Shown here one piece after another: positions 2,535 through 63,569 of a DNA stretch of 64,000 nt (position 1 is the stretch's first letter; each line of letters starts with the position of its first letter). Position numbers and translations under genes: made by a program. The DNA lies in the UHGV virus genome UHGV-0294963; one strand, 5' to 3'. The stretch is from a virus. The notes beneath the pieces were generated by a model, which searched no databases, was not told the origin of the DNA, and worked only from the letters and a program-made list of their open reading frames with translations.

Positions 2535-2548
2535 GGGGGTAAGTTGTC

Positions 2549-4047: not shown

Positions 4048-4056
4048 GGTGAGTCT

Positions 4057-5368: not shown

Positions 5369-5374
5369 TACAAT

Positions 5375-6037
5375 ATGGAAATTCCGAGCTTTTTCTATAT
5401 GCAAGATATCATTGAACGACGTAATCGACTTTTCGAAGTAGGAAATAAAATTCCTGAATATCGCGAGCTAAAGGAGATGGGCTGTAAGTTCTATGATGGA
5501 TTTCTGCTTCGGGACGACGAATCAGGTACCCAGTTAGAGCTTAACCATCTCTTTCTTCCTGACGATGTAGAAGACTGGGATAGAGGAACTAGAATACTGA
5601 ACAGGTATATCAAGGTTATTGAATCCTTGTATCTGCTTGAGAACACAGAGCATTGTATCGAGTCCGCTCGCCTTCTTACAATAGAGCGTGAGGAATTATA
5701 TAAGCAGATAATCCGTGAGCGGGTCTTTAGTGGTTTGAGGTTATACTATCACAATCAGGACGGTGATTGGGGTATCTACTTTATCGACGTAGAGGGTGCT
5801 CAGGTGAATCGTGCTATCCTCACCAAAACCACCGACAAGAACGTCCGTAAGAGAAATTGGAAAGGCAATCTGAACAGAATGCAGCTTTTTCTGCTTCGTG
5901 ATGATGTAGAAAATAGAACTCGTAGCATTATGCGAGTTGAAGAGATATTTGACCGCCATCGTGAGGAGATGATTATGGGTGGTGTCGCTGGTTATCATAC
6001 TGTAGATAAGGGGTGGTATAATGGCGAACTGGGATAG
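5375..6037 (+). CDS. hypothetical protein
   Basis: ORF with gagagtga RBS. Confidence 0.45.
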   Translation: MEIPSFFYMQDIIERRNRLFEVGNKIPEYRELKEMGCKFYDGFLLRDDESGTQLELNHLFLPDDVEDWDRGTRILNRYIKVIESLYLLENTEHCIESARLLTIEREELYKQIIRERVFSGLRLYYHNQDGDWGIYFIDVEGAQVNRAILTKTTDKNVRKRNWKGNLNRMQLFLLRDDVENRTRSIMRVEEIFDRHREEMIMGGVAGYHTVDKGWYNGELG

Positions 6038-7316: not shown

Positions 7317-7319
7317 GAT

Positions 7320-10483: not shown

Positions 10484-10489
10484 TAGTAG

Positions 10490-11758
10490 ATGTTCTATGA
10501 TGTAGGTTCAATAACGAATAGGAACATTCAACTTCTGTATGAGTACAGGATACTGCGAGAACCTTCGGAAAACCTAACTGCGATATGTCGTGGTAGCACG
10601 CCACAGGCTGCGTATGATTTAGCGTGGTCTGTCAGTTCTCGAGTCGTCGACGGTTATGATACTGTCTATGAAGCTACGTTGTCTGGTGTAACGCCTGAAA
10701 AGAATTGTGTTCCTTTCATAGAATTTCATCCAGACGTAGGTGTGGACTGGAAATGGATAGCTGACTTTATCGATGTTGAAGTTGACGATGGTGCAGTCAA
10801 GCTCTACAGTACTACCAATTATCTAGATTCACTTTCTATGTCTGTGTATTGGTGCTATTCGTTGCGTCATATCGATAATATGTTATCAGATATTTTAAAG
10901 GATTTAGATAGACTAATTAAGGAATATGACCAGCTTGAAGATGAAATCAGGAATTTCAAAGATACAGGTCGTTATATGAAACGTCCTGAAGGTCTGATAC
11001 CAAATCTGGTTAAGATTAAGACTACTGCAGAAGGTTCTGACTTGGTTGATTCACTATATAAGATAATGACAGCAGAGAGTAATCGTCTGTTCGTCGATAT
11101 GACGCAAGATAATCTAAATCACATGGAGCATATCTTTAATGAGAAAGTAGAATTCAGATTTACCAATAAAGACCACTATGTCGTAGATGATATTATAGCA
11201 CCTATAATTCTTATTTCAGGGTACGGAGATTTAGTCCTGAAAAATATCAGAGGTCAAGTGTTGGTCACACGCTGGTCTGGTACCATAACGGTTATCGACT
11301 GTCCGGAGGTGCATCTTACCGCGGTGAATTCTGGTGATATCTGTAAGCTAACTAAGCTACAGATTAGCAAAGGTAGTACGGTTTATCTTGAAAATCAGGT
11401 TCATCGGATTAAAGAATTATCGATGTTCGCCGATAGTATCTGCAGACATTGGAGGGCAAATGTCAAATCTCTTGCTTATGTAGGTCCTGGCTGTACATAT
11501 TGGTGTTCAGCACAGGTAGCTGTACCTGGTAGGGTTCAGTTGACAGACTACGACGAGAATGACGCTTGTAATACAGTCTACGATTTCAATATGCACGATA
11601 TCATTGGGGCATTTATTTCTGACTTCAATGATATCATGATTGTGGGGTTCAAAAATCTAACTCCGAGGCTAGGTAACTCGGACGCTGAACCACAACCTGG
11701 TATGTATATATCACGCTGGCAAGCTAAGTATAGTTCAGATGTACTGAGAGGTGGTTAA
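10490..11758 (+). CDS. putative receptor-binding / tail-spike protein, paralog 2 of 3
   Basis: TNRNIQLLYEYRILREPSENLTAI, VPFIEF, VYW..SL blocks shared; divergent C-terminus. Confidence 0.35.
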   Translation: MFYDVGSITNRNIQLLYEYRILREPSENLTAICRGSTPQAAYDLAWSVSSRVVDGYDTVYEATLSGVTPEKNCVPFIEFHPDVGVDWKWIADFIDVEVDDGAVKLYSTTNYLDSLSMSVYWCYSLRHIDNMLSDILKDLDRLIKEYDQLEDEIRNFKDTGRYMKRPEGLIPNLVKIKTTAEGSDLVDSLYKIMTAESNRLFVDMTQDNLNHMEHIFNEKVEFRFTNKDHYVVDDIIAPIILISGYGDLVLKNIRGQVLVTRWSGTITVIDCPEVHLTAVNSGDICKLTKLQISKGSTVYLENQVHRIKELSMFADSICRHWRANVKSLAYVGPGCTYWCSAQVAVPGRVQLTDYDENDACNTVYDFNMHDIIGAFISDFNDIMIVGFKNLTPRLGNSDAEPQPGMYISRWQAKYSSDVLRGG

Positions 11759-11760
11759 AA

Positions 11761-14139
11761 ATGATTTATCAACTTAGTCAGGTTTCGAATAGAGATACTC
11801 AGGTTTTGTATTTCTACAGAATACTGCGGCATGCAAGTACAGACTTAGGCGCAATCTACAGGTATGATAATCCTGATGTGTATCAGCTTAGTCAGGTAGT
11901 GGAGGCTACTATAGACGACAGAACTTGGTTTGAATATCATCTGTCAGTCGACGAGAGACCAAATCGAATACCGTATCTTGAATTCAGCAGTATCGATGAA
12001 GTCGAGCTCAAGCATATCGAAGACTTGGTAGAAGTTGAAGTGAGAAGTAACGAATTGATACTTCGAGGTGATACAGACGAACTTTCTGGAAATACTTCTG
12101 TTGCTGTCTATTGGGTACCTTCTTTATCCTATATCGATAAACTACAGAAGCAGATTGAGTCCATCATTGAAGACCTTAAGAAGCGTGCCAAGGAAGATGC
12201 TGATTTAATCGACAGAATCTCGGTTAGTTCTGATTATGTGATGAACCTTGATGGTGTAATACCTAATCTGGTAAATATCGGTGAAGATGAAGAGGGTTTG
12301 ATATATGATGACTCACATTATATGCTATCAGGTCCTCTTGATGAACAGACTCTGATAAATCCTCCCCAGTCTACTGTATCTAGTCTTCTTAAATCGCATA
12401 AAGGAATGCTTATTATATCTGATAGATTAAGAGAGAATAAGGTATATCAGGGTTTCTACGGTGGCTGTATAAGGTTATCAGGGGTGTTCAAGACCTTGGT
12501 ATTGAAAGACATTACATCGATTATATTCTTGGATAACTTATCTGCGGATAGAGTAATTATCGAGAACTGCCCTGCTGTTATATTCAGAAAGACGATAAAA
12601 GACTCAGGTAAGTCTGGTAGGATTATTCGCCTAGAGCTTCGTAATTCATATCTAACGATTAATCAGTCGATAGAAATTAGAAACATCTGGTGCTACCGGA
12701 GAAGCACCGTAGTCATGAAAACAGGTAAAATTCATACCATCGGTTTTATAGAAGCTGGGTCAACTCTAGTCTATGACACACCGACTTCTAGAAATGAGAT
12801 TGAGAGAATTAACGGTACTCGGCTTCAAGGATTGTTCTACGCGAGTAATCCGCCAAACTCAATGCCGTATCTTGAAGAAATCTTCATGGCTCAAAAACCA
12901 ATTGCGTTTCAGCGTGGCACCGTCGAAGACCCAACTCCTATTTCAAAAGCCGAAGTGAGTATCTACCTAAAGCATTCTGGGACACCCGGCCCCGGCCCAT
13001 CACCAAGCGGTAAGATATATTCGCCATTCACAGATTGGTATTGGTCAGGGGATTCCCGAACTGTTCAGTTAATAGCTGAGACTGGAACTGACGGTAAAGG
13101 TTACGGAGGTGAGTCATTACCTAAGCTACAGCAGGTTCAATCTGAAATCGAAAGTCAAGGCGTTCAGCACAATATCATACTCTGGTGGGGCGTAAACGGT
13201 TTAGGATATGGTGCAGCTGCTTATGCGAGTGTGTATAAAGACATTGCAGATAATGTCGGCAGTACCGCTATGGTATTTGTCGCGACGGTGGGTCACTGCC
13301 CGAATGGTAGTGGTAGCGGGAAGTGTGACGGTGGTGCTGGGCAACCGCTTGGTCCTTTTAATGAGGAGATAGAGCAGTTTAACGAATCTTTAAAATCGGA
13401 ACTATCTAGTGCAGCTAATATTCATATTCTTGATGTAGCAAAATACATTAAAGATTTAGAAGAAGCTAACGGTGCAGCTTGGTTAACCAGTGATAATCTG
13501 CATTATAAACCTGAAGCGTCACAGATGATTTATGATTGGGTTTGTAGCCAGATAACAAATCAACAAGGTGGCGATTTCCCAGACGCTCCGGAGACCACCA
13601 ATGCTGGTAAGATTTGGAACTGGTTTAAACGTGCTGGTATAGCCAATGTGTCTACTCGACCTGAACTGATTGCTGGTATTATCGGTAACTGCCAAGCAGA
13701 GTCCTTCCCTGCTATCGACTTGCTAGGTTATGGCGGTGACCTTTATGGACCTTGGTGTGAATTGAATGCAGGATTCAGAACAACAGTGACTAATGCTGGG
13801 TATTCATTTCATAGTTATACTAGGTCACCGGGTGACGATTCTGCTGCTATACCAACAATCTTTACCTGGTTGACTCAGCAAAGTAGTAGCTGGGTAGATT
13901 GGTTAGCTGATGTAATTGACCAGGTTACTGACCAGACTGGAGAAGCTGGTGCTCGAGCTTATGCTGAGTTATTCTGTGTCTGCGTCGAACGCTGCGTTGG
14001 CGGTGAGGACTCAGTTAATGACCCAGGAGTGCATCAGATAATGACCGACTATTATGGCGGTACGGTCTATAGGTATCAAGACTTAGGAACCCGACGTGAT
14101 AATGCCGCTAATATCTATAGTCAATTTATGGGAGGTTAA
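11761..14139 (+). CDS. putative receptor-binding / tail-spike protein, paralog 3 of 3, with SGNH/GDSL-type hydrolase domain
   Basis: Shared N-terminus (SNRDTQVLYFYRILRHASTDLGAIY, IPYLEF); GDS motif WYWSGDSRTV and DNLHY (DxxH) about nt 13000-13500 suggest a carbohydrate esterase domain. Confidence 0.35.
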   Translation: MIYQLSQVSNRDTQVLYFYRILRHASTDLGAIYRYDNPDVYQLSQVVEATIDDRTWFEYHLSVDERPNRIPYLEFSSIDEVELKHIEDLVEVEVRSNELILRGDTDELSGNTSVAVYWVPSLSYIDKLQKQIESIIEDLKKRAKEDADLIDRISVSSDYVMNLDGVIPNLVNIGEDEEGLIYDDSHYMLSGPLDEQTLINPPQSTVSSLLKSHKGMLIISDRLRENKVYQGFYGGCIRLSGVFKTLVLKDITSIIFLDNLSADRVIIENCPAVIFRKTIKDSGKSGRIIRLELRNSYLTINQSIEIRNIWCYRRSTVVMKTGKIHTIGFIEAGSTLVYDTPTSRNEIERINGTRLQGLFYASNPPNSMPYLEEIFMAQKPIAFQRGTVEDPTPISKAEVSIYLKHSGTPGPGPSPSGKIYSPFTDWYWSGDSRTVQLIAETGTDGKGYGGESLPKLQQVQSEIESQGVQHNIILWWGVNGLGYGAAAYASVYKDIADNVGSTAMVFVATVGHCPNGSGSGKCDGGAGQPLGPFNEEIEQFNESLKSELSSAANIHILDVAKYIKDLEEANGAAWLTSDNLHYKPEASQMIYDWVCSQITNQQGGDFPDAPETTNAGKIWNWFKRAGIANVSTRPELIAGIIGNCQAESFPAIDLLGYGGDLYGPWCELNAGFRTTVTNAGYSFHSYTRSPGDDSAAIPTIFTWLTQQSSSWVDWLADVIDQVTDQTGEAGARAYAELFCVCVERCVGGEDSVNDPGVHQIMTDYYGGTVYRYQDLGTRRDNAANIYSQFMGG

Positions 14140-14984: not shown

Positions 14985-15017
14985 AACTTCGTTTCTGTAC
15001 CTGTACTATGTTATAAT
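14985..15017 (+). promoter_or_regulatory. promoter AACTTCGT-N16-TGTTATAAT, with an 8-bp inverted repeat (ctgtacct / aggtacag) flanking the -10
   Basis: exact motif; IR ctgtacct(14996-15003)...aggtacag(15020-15027) suggests an operator. Confidence 0.6.
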
Positions 15018-16107: not shown

Positions 16108-16124
16108 GGTTTATAACTTCGTGT

Positions 16125-16147
16125 GCGTGAACGAAATATGTTATAAT
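16125..16147 (+). promoter_or_regulatory. promoter AACTTCGT-N16-TGTTATAAT
   Basis: exact motif upstream of 16222 gene. Confidence 0.6.
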
Positions 16148-16945: not shown

Positions 16946-18030
16946 AAGTTATTCACCTGGCTGACCTTCATATAGGTAAGCCATTTCACAAGAAAAGTCT
17001 GCTATTCGACCAGACCTATATGCTGAAAAATGTCCTGGATTTGATGGAATCTCAGAAAGCACATCTGGTTATTGCAGGCGATGTGTTCGATTCTGCAAAT
17101 CCATCAATCGACGCTCAGGAAGTGTTCGTATCCTTTATCAAGGAGGTCGTGAAACTCTGTGATGCGTATAATCTGACTACGATTATTATCGTTGGTAATC
17201 ACGATTCTAATAGACGTCTTGCTTTGTGGGAAGACTTTGTCGGTACTCGAGTTCATATCGTGAACGATACTGTTGAAATACTAATCGAGGGTATTCCGTT
17301 CTATGCAGTTTCTTTTGTAAAACCCACAATCGCACAGACGAAATTCAATCGCCCATTTGAGTCCTATAATGAGGCTTTTGAAGCATATCTGCCTGAAACA
17401 AATCGTGAGAATACAATTCTCATTGCGCATCAGACATTCGAAGGTTGCACTACCGGTTCGTCTGAAGCGATGTCGTTCTTTGATGATGCAGTTAGCAAGA
17501 GAATCGTTCAGGAATTCCCATTGGTAATGGCAGGTCACATTCATAAGAAGCAGAAGATAGGAAATATTTTCTATCCTGGTAGTCTTATGCCTTATGCTTT
17601 CGGTGATGAGTATGCAGGCGGTATTACAGTATGGGACATTAGTACAGGTACGGACGGTAAGCTCACAGCCGGTTCTTCTGTCTATCCTGTACATCTATAT
17701 CGTGAATTCCAGATTGTAAGAGGAGACCTTAAGCATTGTCTAGGTATCGCAGATACAGGAGCCTATATCAAGGTTGAGCTTGTCGATGAGAATGTACCAC
17801 TCGATGTGGCTTTACCTCAACTTCAGAATCATTTCAAGAATATGGTAACGGCTGTTTCTAAGATAACGGACGATTGGGAAGCCGACTTGAATAAACCAAT
17901 GGTTCAATTCGATTCAATAGAATCCGCTCTGGATAGCTTCTGTAATCAGATTGAAGTTCCAGTCCTGGAGTCTGAACAATTACGATTAGTGCAGGAGGTA
18001 GTTCATGAGATTACTGAAACTTCAAATTAA
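16942..18030 (+). CDS. sbcD: SbcD/Mre11-like nuclease (calcineurin-like phosphoesterase)
   Basis: MKVIHLADLHIGK, AGDVFDS, GNHDS, GHIH motifs; TTG start after aaggaggagg RBS. Confidence 0.8.
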   Translation: MKVIHLADLHIGKPFHKKSLLFDQTYMLKNVLDLMESQKAHLVIAGDVFDSANPSIDAQEVFVSFIKEVVKLCDAYNLTTIIIVGNHDSNRRLALWEDFVGTRVHIVNDTVEILIEGIPFYAVSFVKPTIAQTKFNRPFESYNEAFEAYLPETNRENTILIAHQTFEGCTTGSSEAMSFFDDAVSKRIVQEFPLVMAGHIHKKQKIGNIFYPGSLMPYAFGDEYAGGITVWDISTGTDGKLTAGSSVYPVHLYREFQIVRGDLKHCLGIADTGAYIKVELVDENVPLDVALPQLQNHFKNMVTAVSKITDDWEADLNKPMVQFDSIESALDSFCNQIEVPVLESEQLRLVQEVVHEITETSN

Positions 18031-20728
18031 GAACTTTATCAGTATCAAGCAAGCGTCTATCGACTTTGAGGAGCTGAATGACGGAGTATTTCTTATCTCA
18101 GGACCTACAGGTTCTGGTAAGTCATCGATGCTTGATGCAATCCACTGGGTACTGTTCGGCAAGACGCTGTCTTCCAACCGCGCAACGGTTACTAAAGAAA
18201 TCCGCAGTACATACGCACCAGCAAATGAGGATACCGTGGTTACTCTTACCTTCAATCAGGACAAGATTGATTATAAGGTAGTTCGCACACTCAAGAAAGA
18301 CGGCGGTACCGCTGTTCAGCTGTTCGCTCCTGGTATCATTTATGATAAGGTAAAGGAAGCGAATGAGCATCTGGAGAAGATTATCGGACTTACGGTTAAG
18401 CAGTTCGACCAGATGGTTATGCTAGAACAAGGTAACTTTTCTAAATTTCTACTTGCAGACTCTCGTACTCGTGCTGAGATTCTACGTGATATTTTTGATA
18501 CTCAACTATTCAAGGACATTGAATTAAGATTCAAAGATAGATGTGCTGATTTGAAGCAGACTATTCTTAATTCTACAGAGCTCGAGCAAAGTCTACTTCA
18601 AGGCGAGATGCTTGAAACTGTTCAGAGTCAGATTATGCTTACAGCTGAAACAATTCAAGAAGAGCAGGCTCGTCTTGATGAGCTGAAAGCAAGTCACAAA
18701 GCAGCCGAGGATATGCTACCAGACATGGTAGCATACGACCAGCAGTATGCTGTATATGCAAAAGCACAGAAGGAACTCGAACAGCTTGCAGCTCTCAAGT
18801 CAGAGGTTGAGGAGCTCTATAAAAAGCGAGACGTATATATGGCGTATGTCTCTGTTCTTGATTGGTATGCGTCTTACCATAAGACCAGGCAGGAGTATGA
18901 CAAGTGCGTAACTGATGAGGCTGATTATCAGAAGAGAATCGCCTCAGTGGTTGTCGATGAAGAACTTTCCGGTAAGGTTTCTGCATTACAAGCACGCCAA
19001 TCAGAACTGACAGCACAACTCGATGCGTTCGCTCAACTCGCTCGTCAGAAGGAGCAGCTTGATAGTTATTATCAGGAGATAGCTGGACTTGCTGATGAAA
19101 AGACCCACCTTGAAACCTGTCTGACCGCTGTTCAAGAAACCAAGGATAATCTTAAGATTAGGCTTGATACTCGACGTGACTTCGACCAGAAAAAGGCTGA
19201 GGTGATTGAGCGAGATAAAGCGAGAGCTCGTATGCAGCAAGACATTGAAGCTTTAGAAACGTTTATAGACAGTAATAAAGCAGTCTACTCAAAGCTACTA
19301 GCACGCAAACTTCTTGATATGAGTGAACCAGGTATTTGTCCCATCTGTGGTACTGTGTACACGGATGAGCACGTGTCGGTAGAAACCTCCGGTAGTAGCA
19401 TTGATTCTAAACAACGTGAATTGGAGACCAAGAAGAACCAGCTAGAAGGTCTCAGAGTTCAACTCGATAGTTTACCAGTGCTTCCGGAACCAGAGTGTAC
19501 TGAGGTAGCACCTTACAACGACCTTCTTACGCAGTGGAATACAACCGCAGCGAAATACAACGAAACACAATCTAAACTCTATGAGGTCGATAAGAAATTG
19601 GCAACATTAACCGGTGCCTCTGAAGCAGCTAAACGGGAGATTGCTAATATCGAATTGAAGGTAGCCAATCTAGTGGAAGTAGAACTTCAGCAAGAGCTTG
19701 ACCAGGTTAATGCTGAGTACAGCGAGCTCTGGGCTAAGGTTGATGATAACGAGATGGCTAAAAGAAGTCGCAACCTACTTGAAGGTTACCTCAGAAGTGT
19801 TCAAGATAAGATGAACACTCTTAAAGCTGAACTCGAGCGTCTGATGGCACTTCCTGAAGCTAAATCTGATGATGACGCAGAACTAAAAGCCGCTTTATCT
19901 TATGCAGACCGGGTAGACGATTATCGAGTTCATATCAATGATTATCTTTACAAAATTCAGCAATATGAAATGCTCAGAGATAATCTGCTATCTGTAGATG
20001 AACCTGTCAATCCACATCCTGGACATACTGCTGCGAGCGTCAGACAGCTAATCACAGATACAAATATCGGTATTGAAGAATCTGTCAGACGAATTGCAGA
20101 AGCACAGAATTCACTTGATGCCCGTAAAGAGTTGGTTAAGCGAGTATCTGATATCAGAGCTGAACGAGATAAAAATACCAAGGCTTATGACCAGCATATG
20201 TACCTTTATAACCTGTTATCTGGCAAGAACAGTTCTAAGATTTCATTCGAGACTTTTGTTCTGCACAGACAGCTTGAATGGATTCTGCAATCGAGTAATC
20301 AATATCTGCATACACTGTCGGCTGGTCAGTTCGAGCTTCAAGTTAAGTGGGAGTCATTGTCAGGTCGTACTCAAGGTGGTTTGGAAATTATGATTACAGA
20401 CCATTTCACAGGTAGCACTCGTCCCGCTCAGACATACTCAGGTGGTGAGCTATTTATGCTCAGCCTTAGTCTTAGCCTGGGATTGATGACTGCGATTGAC
20501 TCACTGTTCACTACAAGAGACTTGAACTTGCTGTTCGTAGATGAAGGATTCGGCACTCTTGATAGTGATTGCCTCAGTCGTACTCTTATGACACTTCGTG
20601 ACTTAAGAAATATCAAGAGTGTGGGAATAATATCACACGTTCAGGACCTCATCGACACGATACCGCAAGGATTCATAGTCGAGAAGACCGCAGCTGGTTC
20701 GAAGATAAAATTGTTCAAGAATATCTAG
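18005..20728 (+). CDS. sbcC: SbcC/Rad50-like ATPase
   Basis: Walker A GPTGSGKSS, long coiled coil, zinc-hook CPICG, signature YSGGE, Walker B LLFVDEGFGTLD. Confidence 0.85.
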   Translation: MRLLKLQIKNFISIKQASIDFEELNDGVFLISGPTGSGKSSMLDAIHWVLFGKTLSSNRATVTKEIRSTYAPANEDTVVTLTFNQDKIDYKVVRTLKKDGGTAVQLFAPGIIYDKVKEANEHLEKIIGLTVKQFDQMVMLEQGNFSKFLLADSRTRAEILRDIFDTQLFKDIELRFKDRCADLKQTILNSTELEQSLLQGEMLETVQSQIMLTAETIQEEQARLDELKASHKAAEDMLPDMVAYDQQYAVYAKAQKELEQLAALKSEVEELYKKRDVYMAYVSVLDWYASYHKTRQEYDKCVTDEADYQKRIASVVVDEELSGKVSALQARQSELTAQLDAFAQLARQKEQLDSYYQEIAGLADEKTHLETCLTAVQETKDNLKIRLDTRRDFDQKKAEVIERDKARARMQQDIEALETFIDSNKAVYSKLLARKLLDMSEPGICPICGTVYTDEHVSVETSGSSIDSKQRELETKKNQLEGLRVQLDSLPVLPEPECTEVAPYNDLLTQWNTTAAKYNETQSKLYEVDKKLATLTGASEAAKREIANIELKVANLVEVELQQELDQVNAEYSELWAKVDDNEMAKRSRNLLEGYLRSVQDKMNTLKAELERLMALPEAKSDDDAELKAALSYADRVDDYRVHINDYLYKIQQYEMLRDNLLSVDEPVNPHPGHTAASVRQLITDTNIGIEESVRRIAEAQNSLDARKELVKRVSDIRAERDKNTKAYDQHMYLYNLLSGKNSSKISFETFVLHRQLEWILQSSNQYLHTLSAGQFELQVKWESLSGRTQGGLEIMITDHFTGSTRPAQTYSGGELFMLSLSLSLGLMTAIDSLFTTRDLNLLFVDEGFGTLDSDCLSRTLMTLRDLRNIKSVGIISHVQDLIDTIPQGFIVEKTAAGSKIKLFKNI

Positions 20729-20738
20729 AAGAATAGCT

Positions 20739-20807
20739 GATACTGCTTAAATGCACGGGACTGCTTGTAAAGTTATACACGCAACTTCGTAGCATTTAAG
20801 CAGTATC
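20739..20807. repeat. IR-bracketed intergenic cassette copy B (16-bp arms gatactgcttaaatgc / gcatttaagcagtatc)
   Basis: perfect arms 20739-20754 and 20792-20807; core cttgtaaagttatacacgc. Confidence 0.7.
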
Positions 20808-20816
20808 GTGTATAAT
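20783..20816 (+). promoter_or_regulatory. promoter AACTTCGT-N18-TGTATAAT overlapping the right arm of cassette B
   Basis: motif family; upstream of the DNA polymerase gene. Confidence 0.55.
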
Positions 20817-20846: not shown

Positions 20847-23150
20847 ATGCCAAGACGAAGAATTGGACTACCACAGCGAGATAATGCACCTGCCGCTCCT
20901 GTGGAAATTCCAAAATCATTACAAAAGAAATCCAAACCAGTTAAAGATATGGATTCTATCATCGCTCAAGCAAAAGCGATGTCCGAAAAATATGCAGGTC
21001 AATATGAATGCGTAACTGACAAGGATGTTCTTATCGACTATATCGACACCATCATCAAAGAAAGAAGAACAGGTCTTGATACCGAGACTACTGGACTGGA
21101 TATTTTCCATGATTCTGTAGTCGGTTTCTCACTCTATGCTCCGACAAAGAAAGCAATCTATGTACCGATGCTTCATCTGTCAAGATTCACAGGTAAGGTT
21201 GACCTTTCGCAGCTTTCAGTTGAATTCTGTAGTCAACAGTTAGCTCGTCTTAATGACGTTAAGGAGTTGACCATCGATTACTTTAACGCACCATTCGATA
21301 TGAATGTGATTTGGTATTCGATGGGTGTAAAGCTCTGGGATATCTGCTCGAACGATGCGTCGTTGATGATGCGTTTGCTGAACACCGAGCGTCACAGAAA
21401 CAACAACCTGAAGGACTTACACGCAGACTTCTGTTCACATACAACCAGAGGTCCTCGATTCAGTGAGTTGTTCCCTCCTGGAACATTCAATAGATGTCCT
21501 TATAAGTACACCAGCGCTTACGGTGCTCGAGATGCTGAGATGGCAAGTGAGCTTGTTGACTATGCTTACGGTGAACTAAGAAAGCCTGAGAATGCTGGTT
21601 TACTTAGAGTATGGGAAGATATTGAGCGCCCTCTCATCCCGGTACTTCTGCGTATGCGTGAGAAAGGTGTTCTTGTTGATGAGGCTAAGAGAGCTGAACT
21701 CATCGTCAAGTATCGCGAGAAGCTTGAGGAAGCAGAAAAAGATGTTATCCATGAGTATGAACCTTACATTCCCAAGATTAATCAGTGGAGAATGCGTTAC
21801 GGTAGAGCGAAGGGTAAGGTAATCGACATGCCAGTCAAAATAGGTTCTGAAGCTCAGCTGAAGATTCTTCTATTCGACATTATGGGATTGCCAAGACCTG
21901 AATCAGGTAAGGTTGATAAGAACGTTCTTAAAGACCTAGGAGTACCGATTGCTGGTGCAGTTCTGAGATACAGAGAAGCTAAGAAGCTACTGTCTACATA
22001 CCTTGAGGGTCTTGATAAGTTTATCCAGAAGGATGGTTGCGTTCACGGTGGTATTAAACAGCTTGGAGCTGATACAGGACGTACTTCAGCAGTAGACCCG
22101 AATATGCAGAACATCCCATCTCACAACAGAGAAATCAGAACGATGTACATTGCACGTCCCGGAAGGTATTTAATTTCATGTGACTATTCTGGTCAGGAAC
22201 CGCGTCTGACAGCTTCGTTGTCTAGGGACCCGAAAATGATTGAGACATATCAGAAGGGCCTTGACTTATATTCGATGATTGCTGCTGTTGCTTTCAACAC
22301 CACATATGAAGAGTGCCTTGAAAAGAGACCGAACGGTGAGCTGTACTTAGAAGGTAAGGAGCGTAGAGGACAAGCGAAGACGATAGTGTTGGGAATTTGT
22401 TATGGTCGACAAATTCCGTCTATCGCAGAGCAGCTGAAGTGTAGTGTAGACGAAGCTCAGCTTATCTACGATAAAGTTACCAAGAGTTTTCCGGGTCTTC
22501 TTCGAGCTCAAGATGAATCTGCTGAAATGGCTCATACCAAGGGTTATGTTGAAACACTCTGGGGCAGACGAAGACACTTGTCGGTTATGATGCACGACCC
22601 CTATGAATTCAGATATAAGGACGGGTGTAATCCGGATTTTGACCCGTTCGATTTAGATAACTGTAATGACACGAACGAGTTATCAGAAGCGACTAAGAAA
22701 AAGTATATCAAGGACCTGCTGGGGTTCAAGTACCGTCGTGACAAGAATGAGTATATCGAAGGGTTGAAAGCTCAAGGAATTGAGGTGTCTGACTATTCAT
22801 ATCAGATAAGTGAGCAGAGTAGAAAGTGCTTGAATGCCAGAATTCAAGGGTCGGCTGCTGATATGAGTAAGCTCGCAATGATTGCGATTGATAAAGATGA
22901 GCGGCTAAAGAAGCTCGACTGTTATCTACTTCTGATGATTCATGATGAGGTTATATGTGAATGCCCTATCGAAAACCACAAAGAAGCAATCACCTATATT
23001 AAAGAAGATATGGAAAAGGTAGCATCACATCTTCCGGTACCGTTTAAGTCAGACCCTGAAACAGCGGTGTGCTGGTATGGAGCTGAGGTTGATATAGATG
23101 AAGACGGTGAGCTTGAGGACGGAGGCGATGATGGTGAAGAGAGTGCATAA
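20847..23150 (+). CDS. family A DNA polymerase with 3'-5' exonuclease domain
   Basis: Exo I LDTETTGL; polymerase motifs RRGQAKTIVLGICYG and LLMIHDEVICE; aaggaggtaacc RBS. Confidence 0.85.
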   Translation: MPRRRIGLPQRDNAPAAPVEIPKSLQKKSKPVKDMDSIIAQAKAMSEKYAGQYECVTDKDVLIDYIDTIIKERRTGLDTETTGLDIFHDSVVGFSLYAPTKKAIYVPMLHLSRFTGKVDLSQLSVEFCSQQLARLNDVKELTIDYFNAPFDMNVIWYSMGVKLWDICSNDASLMMRLLNTERHRNNNLKDLHADFCSHTTRGPRFSELFPPGTFNRCPYKYTSAYGARDAEMASELVDYAYGELRKPENAGLLRVWEDIERPLIPVLLRMREKGVLVDEAKRAELIVKYREKLEEAEKDVIHEYEPYIPKINQWRMRYGRAKGKVIDMPVKIGSEAQLKILLFDIMGLPRPESGKVDKNVLKDLGVPIAGAVLRYREAKKLLSTYLEGLDKFIQKDGCVHGGIKQLGADTGRTSAVDPNMQNIPSHNREIRTMYIARPGRYLISCDYSGQEPRLTASLSRDPKMIETYQKGLDLYSMIAAVAFNTTYEECLEKRPNGELYLEGKERRGQAKTIVLGICYGRQIPSIAEQLKCSVDEAQLIYDKVTKSFPGLLRAQDESAEMAHTKGYVETLWGRRRHLSVMMHDPYEFRYKDGCNPDFDPFDLDNCNDTNELSEATKKKYIKDLLGFKYRRDKNEYIEGLKAQGIEVSDYSYQISEQSRKCLNARIQGSAADMSKLAMIAIDKDERLKKLDCYLLLMIHDEVICECPIENHKEAITYIKEDMEKVASHLPVPFKSDPETAVCWYGAEVDIDEDGELEDGGDDGEESA

Positions 23151-24714: not shown

Positions 24715-24728
24715 GCCACCAGAGAGAA

Positions 24729-24766
24729 ACACGGTAGTGTCGTTGTCGACACTACCGTGTTTTTAT
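24729..24766. terminator. bidirectional rho-independent terminator at the convergence point
   Basis: 14-bp stem acacggtagtgtcg / cgacactaccgtgt, followed by ttttatttg (+ strand) and preceded by aaa/tct (- strand). Confidence 0.65.
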
Positions 24767-24847
24767 TTGTAGTTATATGATACATAAATCACGTTGCTAC
24801 ACAACGCACGCTAATGATTTGCGTGTGGTTCACACGAATCACATAAA

Positions 24848-24893
24848 CTTATACATGATTTACTACCGTGTGGTATGCTTTAGCGTGCTACGT
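24848..24893 (+). promoter_or_regulatory. second copy of the conserved 40-nt block (gatttactaccgtgtggtatgctttagcgtgctacgtg)
   Basis: near-identical to 16065-16107; abuts the stop of the - strand gene 24897..27104. Confidence 0.4.
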
Positions 24894-24896
24894 GAT

Positions 24897-27668: not shown

Positions 27669-27703
27669 AGACTCGTCCTCCTTTTTAATTGATTTTAACT
27701 GTT

Positions 27704-27766
27704 CTGCTTAAATGCACGAAGGTACAGTGTATAAATTTACAGCCTAACCGACGCAGCATTTAAGCA
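27704..27766. repeat. IR-bracketed intergenic cassette copy C (arms tgcttaaatgc / gcatttaagca; core acagtgtataaatttacag)
   Basis: arms 27705-27715 and 27756-27766; right flank gcatttaagcaaaaccg identical to cassette F. Confidence 0.7.
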
Positions 27767-27778
27767 AAACCGCTGTGC

Positions 27779-28054: not shown

Positions 28055-28080
28055 AATATCTAACTCCTTTGTAATAGATT

Positions 28081-28135
28081 AGTGATGTGCGTCTGTAACG
28101 AACGCCCCACGTTCTAATATACAGACGCACATCAG
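28081..28135. repeat. perfect 15-bp inverted repeat (tgatgtgcgtctgta / tacagacgcacatca) with 25-nt loop
   Basis: seen directly between the sheath stop and the HU start; possible RNA stem-loop (processing or attenuation). Confidence 0.55.
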
Positions 28136-28145
28136 TATCACGGTA

Positions 28146-37697: not shown

Positions 37698-37746
37698 TAA
37701 ATCAAGATAAAGAAGCACGTCGCAGCGAAATACTGTGACGTGCTTC
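37698..37746 (-). terminator. rho-independent terminator after the terminase gene
   Basis: stem gaagcacgtc / gacgtgcttc with a T-rich tail on the - strand (ttctttatcttgattt). Confidence 0.5.
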
Positions 37747-37753
37747 TGATTTT

Positions 37754-37777
37754 GCTTAAATGCAGTGATACTGCATT
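37754..37777. repeat. degenerate/truncated copy D of the IR cassette (gcttaaatgcag-tgata-ctgcatt)
   Basis: left arm intact, core deleted; downstream region 37620-37680 carries gttatacacatttacag and tagcgtgcta motifs. Confidence 0.5.
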
Positions 37778-37796
37778 ACTGTTTAGTTATTAAGAA

Positions 37797-39749
37797 TCAG
37801 TGCATTTGTGTTAATCGGTCGAAAAATGACCAATCGTCTGGATTTCTTTCGAACGCAGTTCTGTCGTAGGCTTGCAGCCCACCGAATAGGCCGTTCTTGA
37901 ACGACGAAGGCATTTTATCTTCTTTTTCGTGTGAATACATCGTAAAATCATGTAAAACCGGAGTATAAGGTAACAGACTCAAATCCCATACAGCGCCTGC
38001 CAAGCTATCCGAAATATCTTTTGAACCATTAGCAGGATGGTCTAGCTTACCTGTATGGGTATCGTATTGAAGATAAATCAATTCATTTTCTAATCTAGCG
38101 TAATGAATTAGACTAATTCTACGCTCCATCATCGATTCACGCAGAGTCTTATAACCTTCTGGTGTACGGTCGAGTGAGCGTATAGCCGTGGTGAATCCTT
38201 TATCTCGCAATATCTGATGAGACTCAGCTGTCTGGTAGGTATCGGTACTGATTATAGCAATATTAAATCCCACACTTCGTAGCCAGTACAGGAACCTTCG
38301 GTTCTTTGCCATGCTAATTTCGGTACCAGGTGGAGCCTTGATACCGACAGAGAATACCTGAGCATAAACTCGTTTTTCTATTGTTCCATCATCGGTATCT
38401 GCCAGAACATTATCTACATAGCAAGCACCCGATATACCAGTAATATCATTCTTCAATGACGTATCAAGATGTATAGCCATCGGTCTTGATTTATATTCCT
38501 TAGGTACCTTTTCTAGGTCGAAAAATTCTTGATACTCCATATGGTCGTTGCATCCTATCTCAAGTACCTCCGCTGAGAACGGATTTGGTCTATCTGTGTA
38601 GCACGAGCTGATAATCTTATAACTGAAGTAGCTGGTTGTACCCGGTAGTGCTTTACCAGCAAGGTCCTGTAATGCAGTTATGATGTTGAACCGAAAATCT
38701 GACTCTAGTTCAACCGGGACATCCAGTATCTCATATCCAAGCTGTCGTATGGCATCAAGGTCTTCTCCTTCTTCAATCACTCTAGGAGTTAGCTGTTTCG
38801 CACCGTAAGCAACCTTAAACATTTTACCAGAATATGTATCAGAGGGTTTTACAACCCACAGCGGCTCGTCGACAATGAACAGTTTATCAGCGTCGTTCTC
38901 TTTTCGGCGTTTATCTAGATACACCTCTAAGAAGTCGTCTTCTGCTTTCTTAGAAGAAACCAGGAACATCTTACCCAAGAGTTTTCCGTTCCTGATGAAA
39001 CGTGATTTAATTCTGGCTTTAACCGAAGAGTAAGTCTGCATAATCTTAGACTTCTCCATGGTTGTATTCGAACCCGGTGCGAAGTTAACCTCATCAAGGA
39101 AACCACAGAATATTTGCTGACCTAAACCGTGACTTGCTTTAGAACCAGCTTTAATAGCAATATGTTTTCCTGGTACATAATAAGGGTTAGATGCGGAACC
39201 TGCAACGGTACCATGAGACAGAAACCAAGGAGATTCCATAAGACACGCATGAAGTCGTCCGTAACCAACGCTTTGTGCCAGTGCAACCGTAGCGTTGAAG
39301 AAGAATATAGCAATTTCGTCGGTATCTGCGAATCCGAAATATCTTTGAGGGAATTTCAGACATAATAGTCGATATGTTAGGTAAGCAATGGCATAGACTG
39401 CAATCGCGGTCTTACCAATACCGATAGCCCCTGTAAACGCAATTTCTTCGTATTCGGTATCTCCACCGGCAAATATCTTGCGTAGTTGTTCTCTCCAGAA
39501 AGGGTATATCTGATTACCTAGATTAGTGGCTTTACCTAGATATTCAGGGTCTTCTAGAAACGTGTCTATATCTACCGGAATCTCTTCATAGTCTTCTAGC
39601 CAGACTTTTTCATAGGTTTCACTCTCACCTGTTTCACTGAGCTCTCTGAGTATCTGCTGCATAGTCTCTTGCTCAGAAGGAGACAATGAATTATAGATAC
39701 TTTGAAATCGTTCAGGAGCTAGCATAGTGAGATTTAGCGTACTACTCAT
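37797..39749 (-). CDS. terL: terminase large subunit
   Basis: Walker A FTGAIGIGKTAIAVYAIAY near the N-terminus; 650 aa; C-terminal nuclease-like Asp-rich region. Confidence 0.75.
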   Translation of the reverse strand: MSSTLNLTMLAPERFQSIYNSLSPSEQETMQQILRELSETGESETYEKVWLEDYEEIPVDIDTFLEDPEYLGKATNLGNQIYPFWREQLRKIFAGGDTEYEEIAFTGAIGIGKTAIAVYAIAYLTYRLLCLKFPQRYFGFADTDEIAIFFFNATVALAQSVGYGRLHACLMESPWFLSHGTVAGSASNPYYVPGKHIAIKAGSKASHGLGQQIFCGFLDEVNFAPGSNTTMEKSKIMQTYSSVKARIKSRFIRNGKLLGKMFLVSSKKAEDDFLEVYLDKRRKENDADKLFIVDEPLWVVKPSDTYSGKMFKVAYGAKQLTPRVIEEGEDLDAIRQLGYEILDVPVELESDFRFNIITALQDLAGKALPGTTSYFSYKIISSCYTDRPNPFSAEVLEIGCNDHMEYQEFFDLEKVPKEYKSRPMAIHLDTSLKNDITGISGACYVDNVLADTDDGTIEKRVYAQVFSVGIKAPPGTEISMAKNRRFLYWLRSVGFNIAIISTDTYQTAESHQILRDKGFTTAIRSLDRTPEGYKTLRESMMERRISLIHYARLENELIYLQYDTHTGKLDHPANGSKDISDSLAGAVWDLSLLPYTPVLHDFTMYSHEKEDKMPSSFKNGLFGGLQAYDRTAFERNPDDWSFFDRLTQMH

Positions 39750-45156: not shown

Positions 45157-45188
45157 ACTATCTGACCTCCTTATTAGGTTTGATTTTT

Positions 45189-45246
45189 GCGTAAATGCAG
45201 GGTAGTGCGGTGTACATTATATTATATTAAACCACTGCATTTAAGT
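45189..45246. repeat. IR-bracketed intergenic cassette copy E (gcgtaaatgcag / ctgcatttaagt)
   Basis: arms with 1 mismatch; core ggtgtacattatattatattaaacc; lies upstream of the 43957..45156 start. Confidence 0.6.
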
Positions 45247-45261
45247 GGCATCGGTTATAAA

Positions 45262-45292
45262 ATAGGGCGGTTCAACCGAACCGCCCTACCTT
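45262..45292 (-). terminator. rho-independent terminator
   Basis: GC-rich stem agggcggttc / gaaccgccct, then ttttataacc on the - strand, after the stop of 45350..45748. Confidence 0.55.
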
Positions 45293-50107: not shown

Positions 50108-50179
50108 ACGGTTTTGCTTAAATGCTGTGACACTGCGTTATACTTTACACATACGCATATCGTGCATTTAAGCAAAACC
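50108..50179. repeat. IR-bracketed intergenic cassette copy F (17-bp perfect arms cggttttgcttaaatgc / gcatttaagcaaaaccg)
   Basis: arms 50108-50124 and 50163-50179; core tgtgacactgcgttatactttacacatacgcatatcgt. Confidence 0.75.
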
Positions 50180-50205
50180 GTAGTAGTTACGGACTTTTCG
50201 TAGTT

Positions 50206-57454: not shown

Positions 57455-57487
57455 ATTATAACACAGAATAACCGTGATTGCGAAGTT
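57455..57487 (-). promoter_or_regulatory. promoter AACTTCGc-N16-TGTTATAAT (- strand)
   Basis: motif family. Confidence 0.55.
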
Positions 57488-62913: not shown

Positions 62914-62939
62914 AGTATCAACTCCTTTACTGTACCTAT

Positions 62940-62972
62940 ATTATAACATATTGCGGTGTGGGTAACGAAGTT
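62940..62972 (-). promoter_or_regulatory. promoter AACTTCGT-N16-TGTTATAAT (- strand)
   Basis: exact motif. Confidence 0.6.
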
Positions 62973-62999
62973 GCGAAGCACCGCATAAGCACTCTAAAA

Positions 63000-63560
63000 T
63001 TCCAGAATTGTCAACCGCAAGCTAGGAGTCGGGACTTCTGATATAGAAACTTTTTGCGAGAAATCGTGCTAGCAGAAAACGGTATCTAGGATTCTGGGGG
63101 TGTGGATTACCTGACACGAGAAGCTGGGCTTTCGAAATCAAGGGAGTCAAGAACCAGGGCTGGGAGACCGAGGAGTAGGGTTCGTAACCGGGAGCTGGGA
63201 GGTAGGGGTAGGGGGTAAAGGGTAGGGGATAGGGGGTTTGGATATGGAGACTTTTTGCGAAATCAGTGTCGGAGAAAAAACGTAAAAAGCGGGTCCGTAG
63301 TATCGGAATACCGTTGAAAGGTATTTCAGGACCGGTATTTTCGGGCGATTATTTTAAGGTATCTACAGCAGAACTTCGGTATTTTCCTGGTTTTGTGTTA
63401 TATAACACATCTAGCAGAACGACTCGAAGCTCCTTGCTACCAGCCTGAACCTAGCACGCTAACGCACGCTAAGGGCTTGCTGCTAGACATATGTTATACA
63501 TCGTAGCTATGTTACCCTTAGCGTGCGTTGTGCTGCTATGTGCTGCTTTAGCGCTCACGA
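63000..63560. repeat. 560-bp non-coding region: GCTGGG iterons, (TAGGGG)n G-tract array, ~40-bp direct repeats, long imperfect palindrome
   Basis: no ORF of 60 aa or more on the - strand; G-runs at 63190-63240 in an otherwise AT-rich genome; direct repeats gaaactttttgcgagaaatc (63043) and gagactttttgcgaaatc (63247). Confidence 0.6.
63373..63440. promoter_or_regulatory. divergent promoter pair sharing the palindromic -10 TGTTATATAACA (AACTTCGg on +, AgCTTCGa on -)
   Basis: both strands give 8-mer-N16/17-TGTTATATAA; the - transcript would cross the G-tract region, the + transcript the long palindrome. Confidence 0.4.
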
Positions 63561-63569
63561 GCTCGTTGC

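Follow-up and report, generated by a model that had tools for sequence, protein, structure and literature searches.

We asked what role is played by a short inverted repeat that recurs between the genes of an uncultivated phage, one copy of which lies on the minus strand at 50108-50181 of the 64-kb stretch of DNA analysed here (the window). In this phage lineage, with genomes of ~150 kb, the element is a conserved intergenic hairpin of ~74 nt present in 6-7 copies per genome; the window holds five full copies (A, B, C, E and F) and a decayed sixth. An earlier sequence-only reading had proposed a recurrent intergenic inverted-repeat cassette, and the cassette is real. The motif CTGCTTAAATGC with up to two mismatches has 26 matches in the window against 5.9 expected (26 or more in 0 of 100 shuffles), GCATTTAAGC with up to one mismatch has 21 against 3.65 expected, and a covariance model run over the whole window with filters off recovered exactly five copies, A, B, C, E and F, at 39-72 bits. 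The model placed no copy of the window inside a gene, and it did not detect the ‘seventh arm’ that had been suspected at 63567, which fits the chance level for half-sites. The supposedly collapsed copy at 37754-37777 turned out to be a full-length, decayed copy at 37746-37819 on the minus strand (27-31 bits, E ~1e-5 to 1e-4).

The conserved arm box of the element is GCTTAAATGC/GCATTTAAGC. Arm-to-arm length is 56-60 nt across all family members and the spacer between the boxes measures 36-40 nt (~38 nt). The lower stem of 16-18 bp consists of a near-invariant 10-bp box (GCUUAAAUGC/GCAUUUAAGC) and 6-8 covarying outer pairs; directly above the box there is a small bulge or internal loop with further pairs above it, and the top of the hairpin (~38 nt) is fast-evolving and weakly paired. 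Terminal inverted repeats with arms of 14-18 nt that are 93-100% complementary are present in A, B, C and F, and are weaker in E (45187-45248). The interior had been described as an open loop of 35-45 nt. It folds further in the gene direction, only moderately better than shuffled sequences (mean z -1.06), and some C-type interiors have no fold at all. The centre of the element is AT-rich. Scanning the window with Rfam gave no match at gathering thresholds, and no tRNA match either; a permissive scan returned only sub-threshold pre-miRNA hairpin models (13-26 bits, compared to cut-offs of 50-100), a likeness of shape only. A mini-ORF starting from an AUG within the 5' arm was rejected when the sequences were read, as it is not conserved between orthologs and has no ribosome binding site (RBS).

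Two copies lie on the plus strand. Copy A (1110-1183, 56.8 bits; arms 1116-1129 and 1164-1177, 14 nt, 100% complementary) is located between a 174-aa ORF (582-1106) and a 116-aa ORF (1206-1556), and no promoter can be recognised from its end to the next RBS. Its sense fold has -30.1 kcal/mol and its antisense fold -22.0 kcal/mol; orthologs are L001, L004, L011, L014, L016 and L018. Copy B (20737-20809, 70.7 bits; arms 20739-20754 and 20792-20807, 16 nt, 100% complementary) separates SbcC (18005-20728) from DNA polymerase A (PolA, 20847-23150), and a promoter-like cassette at 20784-20816 overlaps only its 3' half. Orthologs of copy B were found in eight of nine PolA-anchored loci. In the exception, L210, the SbcC–PolA junction is not an empty site: the element is replaced there by another hairpin, ordinary and GC-rich.

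The remaining copies lie on the minus strand. Copy C (27698-27773, 61.2 bits; arms 27701-27715 and 27756-27770, 15 nt, 93% complementary) has the HU gene (28054-27779) on one side and the tail tube gene (27668-27120) on the other, and folds at -33.4 kcal/mol in the sense and -24.0 kcal/mol in the antisense direction. In the decayed copy at 37746-37819 the 3' arm is intact (GCATTTAAGCAAAATC on the minus strand); the eroded, gene-proximal 5' arm overlaps the stop codon of a 650-aa ORF (37797-39749), and a canonical terminator (37747-37711) follows the element. Copy E (45181-45254, 39.3 bits) is partly degenerate, with the arms ACTTAAATGC and GCATTTACGC and the outer stem lost. A GC-rich terminator (~45287-45264) immediately precedes it and a DUF285 gene (45156-43957) follows it; its interior contains a TATAAT 16 nt past the arm hexamer that is kept in all four E orthologs (L020, L185, L187 and L198). 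Copy F, the copy originally flagged (50108-50181, 72 bits; arms 50108-50125 and 50164-50181, 18 nt, 100% complementary; fold z -6.9), is flanked by dUTPase (50646-50206) and a GIY-YIG homing endonuclease gene (50032-49574). UUUUUAUUAU and then a promoter-like cassette (50097-50066) lie 3' of it in the gene direction, and its orthologs are L003, L023, L167, L173, L195 and L224.

The element occurs at identical gene junctions in ~15 related uncultivated contigs of up to 166 kb, and all copies map to six or seven orthologous junctions whose flanking proteins are 70-96% identical. Outside this clade, megablast and a sensitive blastn search with the element found no close DNA relatives among isolated phages, the closest isolates reaching at most 37% identity for PolA and at most 30% for the capsid protein. 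A scan of bacterial genomes gave 24 scattered single matches in unrelated taxa, approximately the number expected by chance (rough estimate 11-25), and a scan of viral contigs with a relaxed 16-base pattern gave essentially chance matches. Exact-pattern scans are biased towards perfect boxes, and the protein-anchored sets reveal the variants.

All 31 of the copies first examined occupy intergenic positions with co-directional genes on either side, the element usually starting 10-15 nt past the upstream stop codon (G type: up to ~36 nt). The gap between the element and the next RBS is only ~22-30 nt at the A and C junctions, so that there the element must belong to the message. Unrelated structures occupy comparable places: GC-rich hairpins or terminators stand upstream of the tube gene in L220-L222 instead of the element, and the sheath–HU junction carries a hairpin of unrelated sequence (I4; 28080-28137, 58 nt, 18-bp stem, no U-run) that covaries between T-A, T·G and C-G across relatives. 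The HU gene, which thus has a hairpin on each side, is missing from more distant relatives. Two genomes have homing endonuclease genes upstream of B, and every genome examined has them downstream of F. Within the window, GC skew and gene direction switch together.

Is the pairing of the arms itself under selection? Standard pairs fill 90.2% of the lower-stem cells, compared to 32-44% when the partner columns are slid. As the sequence-only reading had noticed, the flanks of the arms covary: outer-stem pairs change between AU and UA, and from CG to UG and UA. Inside the box only one covarying change was found, a compensatory A-to-C/T-to-G double change in L212, an ortholog of copy C. Both single-change intermediates are seen, in L214 and L216-219, and another copy in the same genome as L212 (L001) retains the standard box. 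A strand bias is seen as well. The sense RNA has 30 G·U cells against 8 A·C cells, the transition mismatches are of the sense type in 54 cases and of the antisense type in 32, and for A, B, C and F the sense direction gives the more stable fold. Strand-biased C-to-T mutation and the non-independence of orthologs may have inflated the G·U excess, and compensatory changes in inverted repeats can also be produced without selection, by template switching during replication.

Nucleotide diversity (π) is 0-0.057 in the box, 0.19-0.48 in the interior and 0.31-0.49 at third codon positions. Selection keeps the arms, their pairing and the ~38-nt spacing, while the rate of change in the core is roughly neutral. 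The interiors are too diverged to align even within junction classes, so that a column-wise covariation analysis of them failed, and we dropped the idea that core orientation tracks gene direction family-wide, as prediction from asymmetric positions gave the sense orientation in only three of six classes. The 10-bp box is conserved far beyond the needs of pairing, a near-invariance that an RNase III reading nothing but shape does not explain, which suggests an additional sequence-specific partner or concerted evolution.

The recognisable promoters of the phage belong to a separate promoter-like cassette, AACTTCGT-N16-TGTTATAAT; the pattern ACTTCGT-N14-20-TATAAT occurs in eight copies against 0.03 expected. 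Promoters follow B, F and G, with B and F sharing one type and G having a different one, and none follows A or C. The distance from the element to the promoter downstream varies from overlapping to ~23 nt. Promoter boxes at a consistent place within the core are found in class E only: 4 of the 31 copies have a sense-direction -10 box at promoter spacing, all of them class E, and the other five classes contain no -10-like hexamer at consistent spacing in either direction. Generic consensus scans for sigma-70 promoters and terminators stayed at shuffle level and were uninformative. A resemblance of the arm to the T4 MotA box (TGCTT) was rejected, its spacing to any -10 box being inconsistent.

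With respect to termination, the element does not look like a normal intrinsic terminator, as the sequence-only reading had noted: the stems are long and AT-rich, the top measures 36-40 nt and a U-run is missing from most copies. Only F, G and some A copies are followed by one, and B, C and E are not. As most copies have none, classical termination cannot be the shared function. Canonical terminators do exist elsewhere in the phage (e.g. 24725-24764, 37711-37747 and ~45264-45287), and the weakest two copies of the element, E (39 bits) and 37746-37819 (30 bits), are precisely those adjoining canonical terminators, which suggests redundancy.

We therefore favour, with a probability of about one half, the explanation that the element is a transcribed hairpin that serves as an RNase III-type processing, 3'-end-stabilising or attenuating signal. 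An RNA processing structure was among the possibilities raised by the sequence-only reading, and it is favoured because the pairing covaries, G·U pairs are in excess in the sense direction and ordinary hairpins replace the element in relatives. The position between tightly packed co-directional genes implies co-transcription, and the fold has the structure of an RNase III site, an imperfect duplex with an internal loop and a lower stem of 16-18 bp. The comparisons establish recurrence, conservation at orthologous sites, selected pairing, strand bias, geometry and gene context; from them we infer transcription of the element, action on it by RNase III or another factor, and a consequence for expression. 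The ~74-nt hairpin would be transcribed as a segment of polycistronic phage mRNA, co-directionally with the genes around it, and would punctuate the mRNA at gene and module junctions. Its duplex of about two or more helical turns may be a substrate of the host double-strand-specific RNase III, and cleavage would part the upstream cistrons from those downstream, with a stem remaining to protect the new 3' end. In copies that have a U-run behind them (F, G and some A copies), the hairpin might in addition bring about termination or attenuation immediately ahead of the next promoter. A further step, which we consider speculative and rather improbable, is that the 10-bp box and the ~38-nt spacing are read by a dedicated candidate phage factor. 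The six or seven hairpins would then make up a system of punctuation peculiar to the phage, timing or insulating the expression of the replication, structural and lysis modules, with homing endonuclease genes settling next to it. Such a factor could be a sequence-specific double-stranded RNA binding or processing protein, or a DNA-binding protein acting with phage HU, which the sequence-only reading had named as a possible partner; Pfam and PHROG scans of the ~60 window proteins found no partner protein.

Can the invariant box be explained by recognition at the level of DNA? A phage protein would then bind the inverted 10-bp boxes, an HU/IHF-type protein would bend or wrap the ~38-bp spacer, and the complex would insulate or regulate the neighbouring units. 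HU/IHF-type proteins wrap DNA of about 36-40 bp, and the element has a nearly invariant box together with a spacer that is free in sequence and fixed at 36-40 bp in length. The AT-rich centre, the phage HU gene adjoining copy C (28054-27779), the three classes that overlap promoters or sit just upstream of them and the precedent of a possible IHF site between the inverted repeats of Correia elements (PMC2649163) agree with this explanation as well. We nevertheless regard it as unlikely. A double change in one copy (L212) beside a standard box in another (L001) points to intramolecular pairing and not to a shared DNA-binding specificity; the outer-stem covariation and the 30-to-8 G·U excess have no role on duplex DNA; the distance between element and promoter is variable, from overlapping to ~23 nt; and no candidate sequence-specific DNA-binding protein was found among the ~60 window proteins scanned. 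Selected, strand-biased pairing would be equally expected of a hairpin that folds on one strand of single-stranded DNA in replication or recombination, such as an integron attC-like site or a priming signal, and the directions of transcription and replication are confounded here, as GC skew changes with gene direction. The length of 56-60 nt would suit such a site and GCTTAAA/TTTAAGC is one base off the attC consensus RYYYAAC/GTTRRRY, the variants L212, L214 and L224 reading GCTTAAC and/or GTTAAGC. Yet 38 of 41 distinct copies lack the GTT/AAC triplets (GCTTAAA/TTTAAGC), with AAC and/or GTT seen only in L212, L214, L224 and the L024 allele common to L216-L219. There is also no integrase or HUH-type protein among the ~60 proteins scanned (64 kb of the ~150-kb genome), the flanks are core phage genes (SbcC, PolA, HU, tube, dUTPase) at fixed positions with no array of promoterless cassettes, and the I4 hairpin, unrelated in sequence, and the replacement hairpins are all stems of the usual RNA type. 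A signal in single-stranded DNA thus seems very unlikely to us.

The two other proposals of the sequence-only reading, a MITE-like mobile element and a promoter core, fared less well. A selfish or formerly mobile palindrome (MITE- or REPIN-like), or a recombination module akin to the PeSL motifs (composite terminators/promoters) of T4-like phages, would mark or promote gene gain and loss and affect expression only secondarily. The multi-copy element with arms like terminal inverted repeats has the appearance of such a repeat, gene content shifts beside it (homing endonucleases at B and F), the hairpin-bracketed HU gene is absent in more distant relatives, the L210 SbcC–PolA junction is without the element, and the hairpin-plus-promoter arrangement at B, F and G resembles the T4-like motifs (PMC4122927, PMC2839356). 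Mobility is mostly unsupported by the rest of the data, and we consider this origin rather unlikely: inspection of the flanks showed no target-site duplications at the borders of A, B, C, E and F, a ~150-kb genome has only 6-7 copies, and the insertion sites are not variable, orthologous junctions being kept across 70-96% protein identity. No copy in the window is intragenic, no transposase or recombinase was found in the window and no bacterial genome scanned contains a matching repeat family. The arms are far more conserved than neutral sites, which does not fit a decaying relic, and the promoter lies outside the repeated unit (the B/F type differs from that of G, and A and C have none). The lead proposal of the sequence-only reading, a phage-specific middle/late promoter core (TGTAAA..TATACAC) between operator half-sites, applies at best locally. 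The similarity of the cores stands for copies B, C and F of the window and does not extend to the family, where interiors are approximately neutral and inconsistent in orientation. In class E a perfectly conserved TATAAT is located 16 nt past the arm hexamer, between a strong terminator and a gene, and the 3' interior of copy B provides the AACTTCGT box of a promoter-like cassette. Against this, five other classes are without a consistently spaced -10-like hexamer, the core evolves approximately neutrally, the distinct cassette explains the recognisable promoters, and A and C are located within tightly packed co-directional gene pairs. As a function shared by all copies, a promoter core is highly improbable.

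If the hairpins are processing or stabilising signals, as we favour, they would provide a map of how long transcripts are divided in a large uncultivated Firmicutes-type myovirus, and, combined with the AACTTCGT-N16-TGTTATAAT cassette, would make it possible to annotate the transcription units of this clade without data other than sequence. The combination of a near-invariant box, a sequence-free spacer of fixed length and adjoining homing endonuclease genes is unusual.

How does the element compare with known systems? The R sites of T7 are reportedly hairpins at which RNase III processes polycistronic mRNAs, in work attributed to Dunn and Studier in 1983. Phage RNase III hairpins (T7 R, SP82/SPO1 early mRNA) and the element share several features: both occur in several copies per genome, intergenic and in the direction of transcription, they are imperfect, of ~20-30 bp with an internal loop or bulge, and copies within a genome are similar in sequence. 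The Bacillus subtilis enzyme (Bs-RNase III) cleaves SP82 phage hairpins with internal loops, making a single cut in the downstream side of such stems (PMC1935012; PMC4838370, citing Panganiban and Whiteley 1983 and Mitra and Bechhofer 1994). The element differs from the SP82/SPO1 sites in having no sequence similarity to them. The box has 1 one-mismatch match in the SPO1 terminal redundancy against 0.91 expected, and the repeated hairpin and promoter cassettes of that redundancy are unrelated to the element. The box is also more invariant, and the top more variable, than we would expect of sites defined by RNase III alone.

Among bacterial repeats, REP, BIME and REPIN sequences are extragenic transcribed palindromes placed after genes, inverted pairs of which form long hairpins, and REPs have been proposed to stabilise upstream mRNA, to attenuate transcription and to bind architectural proteins. 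The element is likewise an extragenic palindrome placed after genes. In contrast to it, REPs are high-copy host elements spread by RAYT transposases; the element family is present in no bacterial genome scanned, and the window has no transposase. The T4-like PeSL combine an intergenic stem-loop with an early-type promoter where the gene content of close relatives differs (PMC2839356, PMC4122927). The promoters after B, F and G and the homing endonuclease genes that come and go beside B and F are similar to this, but here the promoter is outside the repeated unit and missing at A and C, the repeated arms are only ~18 bp and there is no sequence relationship. In Neisseria, the mRNA hairpins of Correia elements are RNase III substrates that are bound and either cleaved or protected, the ends of these elements (CREE) can supply promoter boxes and the core may hold a site for IHF, a member of the HU family (PMC2649163). 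Correia elements (CREE/NEMIS; CREE 71-157 bp overall, PMC2649163) and the element are both intergenic, with short inverted repeats around a core. CREE are chromosomal MITEs that number >100 copies, show target-site duplications and insertion polymorphism and disrupt genes, while the element has 6-7 copies, no duplications and fixed orthologous positions in one phage clade only. Nothing known is overturned by these comparisons: T7, SP82 and Neisseria provide well-documented cases of recurrent intergenic hairpins that RNase III cuts or that stabilise mRNA, and the element is most likely a new family of this familiar kind of signal.

Five full copies of the element were recovered from paired arms: A (1110-1183) and B (20737-20809) on the + strand, and C (27698-27773), E (45181-45254) and F (50108-50181) on the − strand. 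In copy F the arms (ACGGTTTTGCTTAAATGC, 50108-50125, and GCATTTAAGCAAAACCGT, 50164-50181) are perfect over 18 nt and 38 nt apart. In scans of the window the arm motif lay far above chance (26 matches versus 5.9 expected for the 12-mer with ≤2 mismatches; 21 versus 3.65 for the 10-mer with ≤1 mismatch), and the recurrent inverted-repeat cassette proposed by the sequence-only reading is thus real. Searching the whole window with a covariance model of the family, filters off, recovered the same five copies at 39-72 bits and a sixth at 27-31 bits (37746-37819). This sixth copy had been described as collapsed; it does exist, but it is full-length and decayed, and its gene-proximal arm runs into the stop codon of a 650-aa ORF. 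At 63567, where a further arm had been suspected, the model was silent and we attribute the match to chance.

The window codes for a myovirus-type structural module (portal, major head, sheath, tube) and a replication module (helicase, exonuclease, SbcCD, family-A DNA polymerase, NAD ligase, dUTPase and an HU-type protein), with a GC content of 41-47%. The coding strand is + as far as about 24.7 kb and − past that point. The two blocks meet at 24715-24896 in strong terminator hairpins, the main one (24725-24764) having an 18-bp stem and a U-run, which shows that at sites with a clear need for termination the phage employs canonical terminators. Megablast found no close isolated-phage relative of the window; PolA is ≤37% identical to isolates (phages of Streptococcus, Clostridium and Bacillus) and the capsid protein ≤30% (Bacillus, Listeria and Streptococcus myoviruses). 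Strong AGGAGG ribosome-binding sites would fit a Firmicutes-type host. The window also encodes a KTSC-domain protein (46101-45745, −; Pfam E 8e-19), a radical-SAM/QueE-like protein (54197-53436, −; weak PHROG matches, E 2e-13 to 4e-6) and, in the early region, a 295-aa protein (56973-56086, −) whose residues 10-71 match Pfam Tad8 (E 2.9e-12, 46.6 bits against a cut-off of 27). Tad8 is a type II Thoeris inhibitor family, which makes this gene a candidate anti-defence gene.

Exact-box pattern scans, which can find perfect boxes only, detected the element on roughly 10 IMG/VR contigs, of which the largest measure 110-166 kb, and on more metagenome contigs of 65-138 kb. It was not found in isolated phages, and bacterial genomes gave only single matches scattered over unrelated taxa, approximately at chance level by our own rough estimate. 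Rfam yielded no match at gathering thresholds; a permissive scan returned sub-threshold pre-miRNA hairpin models, a likeness of shape only. True family members are marked by an arm-to-arm distance of 56-60 nt and by outer pairs GGTTTTGC/GCAAAACC or GGTACTGC/GCAGTwyC. When foreign copies were assigned by mapping their flanks onto the window, they occupied the same junctions as the window copies, with flanking proteins just 70-96% identical: helicase region/exonuclease region (class A), SbcC/PolA (B), HU/tube (C), upstream of the DUF285 gene (E) and dUTPase/homing endonuclease (F). With a class G junction beyond this window (516-aa gene/endolysin), this means six or seven stably inherited copies per ~150-kb genome. 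Conservation of the arms in related genomes, a check proposed by the sequence-only reading, was therefore borne out, and copies do not sit at random intragenic positions: every one is flanked by co-directional genes, and its start is usually 10-15 nt past the stop codon (in the G type as much as about 36 nt). These results show a family confined to one uncultivated phage clade.

Because exact-box scans miss imperfect boxes, we fetched unbiased junction sets through the proteins PolA, tube and dUTPase. In these sets nucleotide diversity (π) was 0-0.057 in the 10-bp boxes, 0.09-0.30 in the outer stems and 0.19 (B) and 0.48 (C) in the interior, compared with 0.03-0.10 at first and second codon positions and 0.31-0.49 at third positions; the arms are thus under constraint equal to that on protein-coding positions. 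The interior changes at a roughly neutral rate yet holds a length of 36-40 nt. Standard pairs filled 90.2% of lower-stem cells versus 32-44% with the partner columns slid (orthologous copies are non-independent here and in the strand counts below), and the outer stems covary (UA with AU; CG with UG and UA), as had been claimed for the flanks. At the HU/tube junction of one relative (L212) both boxes have changed compensatorily, to GCTTAACTGC and GCAGTTAAGC, and relatives carry each single-change intermediate (5′ C in L216-219, 3′ G in L214). Together with a variant box with two mismatches (L224), this shows that the box is strongly but not absolutely fixed. These patterns indicate that pairing between the arms is what selection keeps.

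Several asymmetries speak for the sense strand as the one that forms the hairpin. Lower-stem counts were 30 G·U cells in sense RNA versus 8 A·C cells, pairable only in antisense RNA, an excess to which strand-biased mutation could add; three of the eight A·C cells come from the decayed window copy E, and the excess was seen in five of six junction classes. Transition mismatches over whole elements were 54 sense-type versus 32 antisense-type. Folding in both orientations, which had also been advised, gave more stable sense than antisense structures in A, B, C and F. The hairpin top folds further, moderately (mean z −1.06 versus dinucleotide shuffles, class-level p 0.02), with some C-type tops showing no fold. 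No interior orientation shared relative to the genes was found, as a leave-one-class-out test gave ‘sense’ for only 3/6 classes and pairwise interior alignments gave no consistent orientation; the sole asymmetric feature common to all classes is a conserved GGT in the 5′ flank, whose 3′ partner drifts from C to U. A hairpin of element size and unrelated sequence lies at 28080-28137 (sense on the − strand), between the genes for tail sheath (30809-28146) and HU (28054-27779, −). At 58 nt it has an 18-bp stem topped by a small hairpin and lacks a U-run. Relatives retain it, with covariation by way of a wobble state (T-A to T·G to C-G), T·G pairing in sense RNA only. With element C, which precedes the tube gene, it brackets the HU cistron with two long hairpins. 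The HU gene is absent from this position in more distant relatives (L220-L222, tube 85% identical) and so appears to have been inserted into the late structural operon.

Separate from the element, a promoter-like cassette, (A)ACTTCGT-N14-20-TATAAT, occurs in eight exact copies in the window versus 0.03 expected, usually as AACTTCGT-N16-TGTTATAAT-aTAGrTAC (also written AACTTCGT-N16-18-TGT(T)ATAAT-aTAGrTAC). The copies lie at 14986-15017, 16116-16147 and 20784-20816 (+) and at 50097-50066, 53431-53399, 55125-55094, 59909-59878 and 62971-62940 (−), with looser versions near 1557-1628 and 57455-57463. All eight are intergenic and in gene direction, consist of a non-canonical −35 region and an extended −10, and include every AACTTCGT in the window; they probably represent the phage's principal class of early promoters. 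One stands at the downstream end of a 656-nt non-coding region (62914-63569) with a long imperfect inverted repeat (63449-63475/63515-63541, 27 nt, 81%) and pyrimidine-rich CCCCTAyCCC-like repeats, which might be a replication origin, genome end or regulatory hub.

The cassette at 50097-50066 starts 10 nt past element F and that at 20784-20816 overlaps B in its 3′ half. Behind G-type copies comes a sigma-A-like promoter, and behind copies A and C a ribosome-binding site only. Copy E directly follows a strong GC-rich terminator, and canonical terminators adjoin just two window copies, E and 37746-37819, which are also the weakest, as expected if the element becomes redundant where another hairpin is close by. 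At SbcC/PolA one relative (L210) has, instead of the element, a 10-bp GC-rich hairpin around the same promoter cassette, and L220-L222 lack the element as well as HU and carry ordinary GC-rich hairpins/terminators upstream of the tube gene. By these comparisons, the element takes the functional position that an mRNA 3′-end or attenuator hairpin would have. Free-standing GIY-YIG-type homing endonuclease genes (phrog_314) also lie beside elements (50032-49574, −; L019:8503-9024, L012:84-725 and L003:3996-4508 in other genomes), downstream of F in all genomes examined and between SbcC and B in two only; the adjacency may reflect a shared preference for few roomy intergenic sites.

We put at about 50% the probability that the element, transcribed as a hairpin, serves as punctuation in polycistronic phage messages. 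Within such an mRNA, the 16-18-bp duplex with pairs above a bulge would offer the geometry cut by double-strand-specific RNase III; cleavage would uncouple adjacent cistrons, with a protective stem remaining at the 3′ end, and where a U-run is present (F, G and some A copies) the hairpin may also terminate transcription ahead of the next promoter. Precedents are the SP82 early-mRNA sites of a Firmicutes phage, where Bs-RNase III cuts the downstream side of internal-loop stems (PMC1935012; PMC4838370), and, among repeated inverted-repeat elements, the Neisseria Correia elements (PMC2649163). Of the RNA processing structure offered by the sequence-only reading, pairing with covariation, sense bias and hairpin replacements in relatives speak for it, whereas transcription, cleavage and the change in expression are what we infer. 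A shape-reading enzyme does not account for the near-invariant box, which suggests either a partner with sequence specificity or copies that evolve in concert.

The box and the fixed spacing would be explained by a DNA-level site at which a specific protein binds the boxes and HU wraps the spacer; we regard this as unlikely, since it leaves the single-copy compensatory change, the outer-stem covariation and the G·U bias without explanation. The gain and loss of homing endonuclease genes beside B and F, and hairpin-plus-promoter arrangements that recall PeSLs (PMC4122927), would suit a selfish palindromic repeat or PeSL-like recombination module, but target duplications are absent, copies are few and fixed in position and the arms are strongly conserved, which makes this quite unlikely, the MITE-like mobile element suggested earlier included. 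Pairing and G·U signatures are expected equally of single-stranded DNA hairpins, and the arm is one base off attC core sites, with three variants matching; nevertheless, an attC-like or other single-stranded-DNA signal seems very improbable, as 38/41 copies fail to match, no integrase was found among the window proteins scanned and the neighbours are core genes. Similarly slim are the chances of a promoter core between half-sites, as first imagined: a conserved TATAAT at promoter spacing within the element exists in class E only, so that the idea is valid for this class at most, and the core evolves almost neutrally.

The finding is solid and of use in annotating genomes of the clade. The general phenomenon is familiar; that an invariant box goes together with a free spacer is a small puzzle. 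Among known systems, the element would work most like phage RNase III processing hairpins, although it is not a member of that family, and it resembles Correia-type hairpin repeats in working but lacks MITE hallmarks. It differs from REP in having no host REP family, and its sequence shows no similarity to that of the SPO1/SP82 region. The terminal redundancy of Bacillus phage SPO1, compared over positions 1-14000, has repeated early-promoter cassettes of its own as well as hairpin-like repeats that recur between genes (for example 7159-7215/12377-12433 and 11811-11853/12439-12481); these are unrelated in sequence to the present family and hence a parallel, not a relative. The element is best filed as a previously undescribed family of a familiar kind, belonging to one uncultivated phage clade only.
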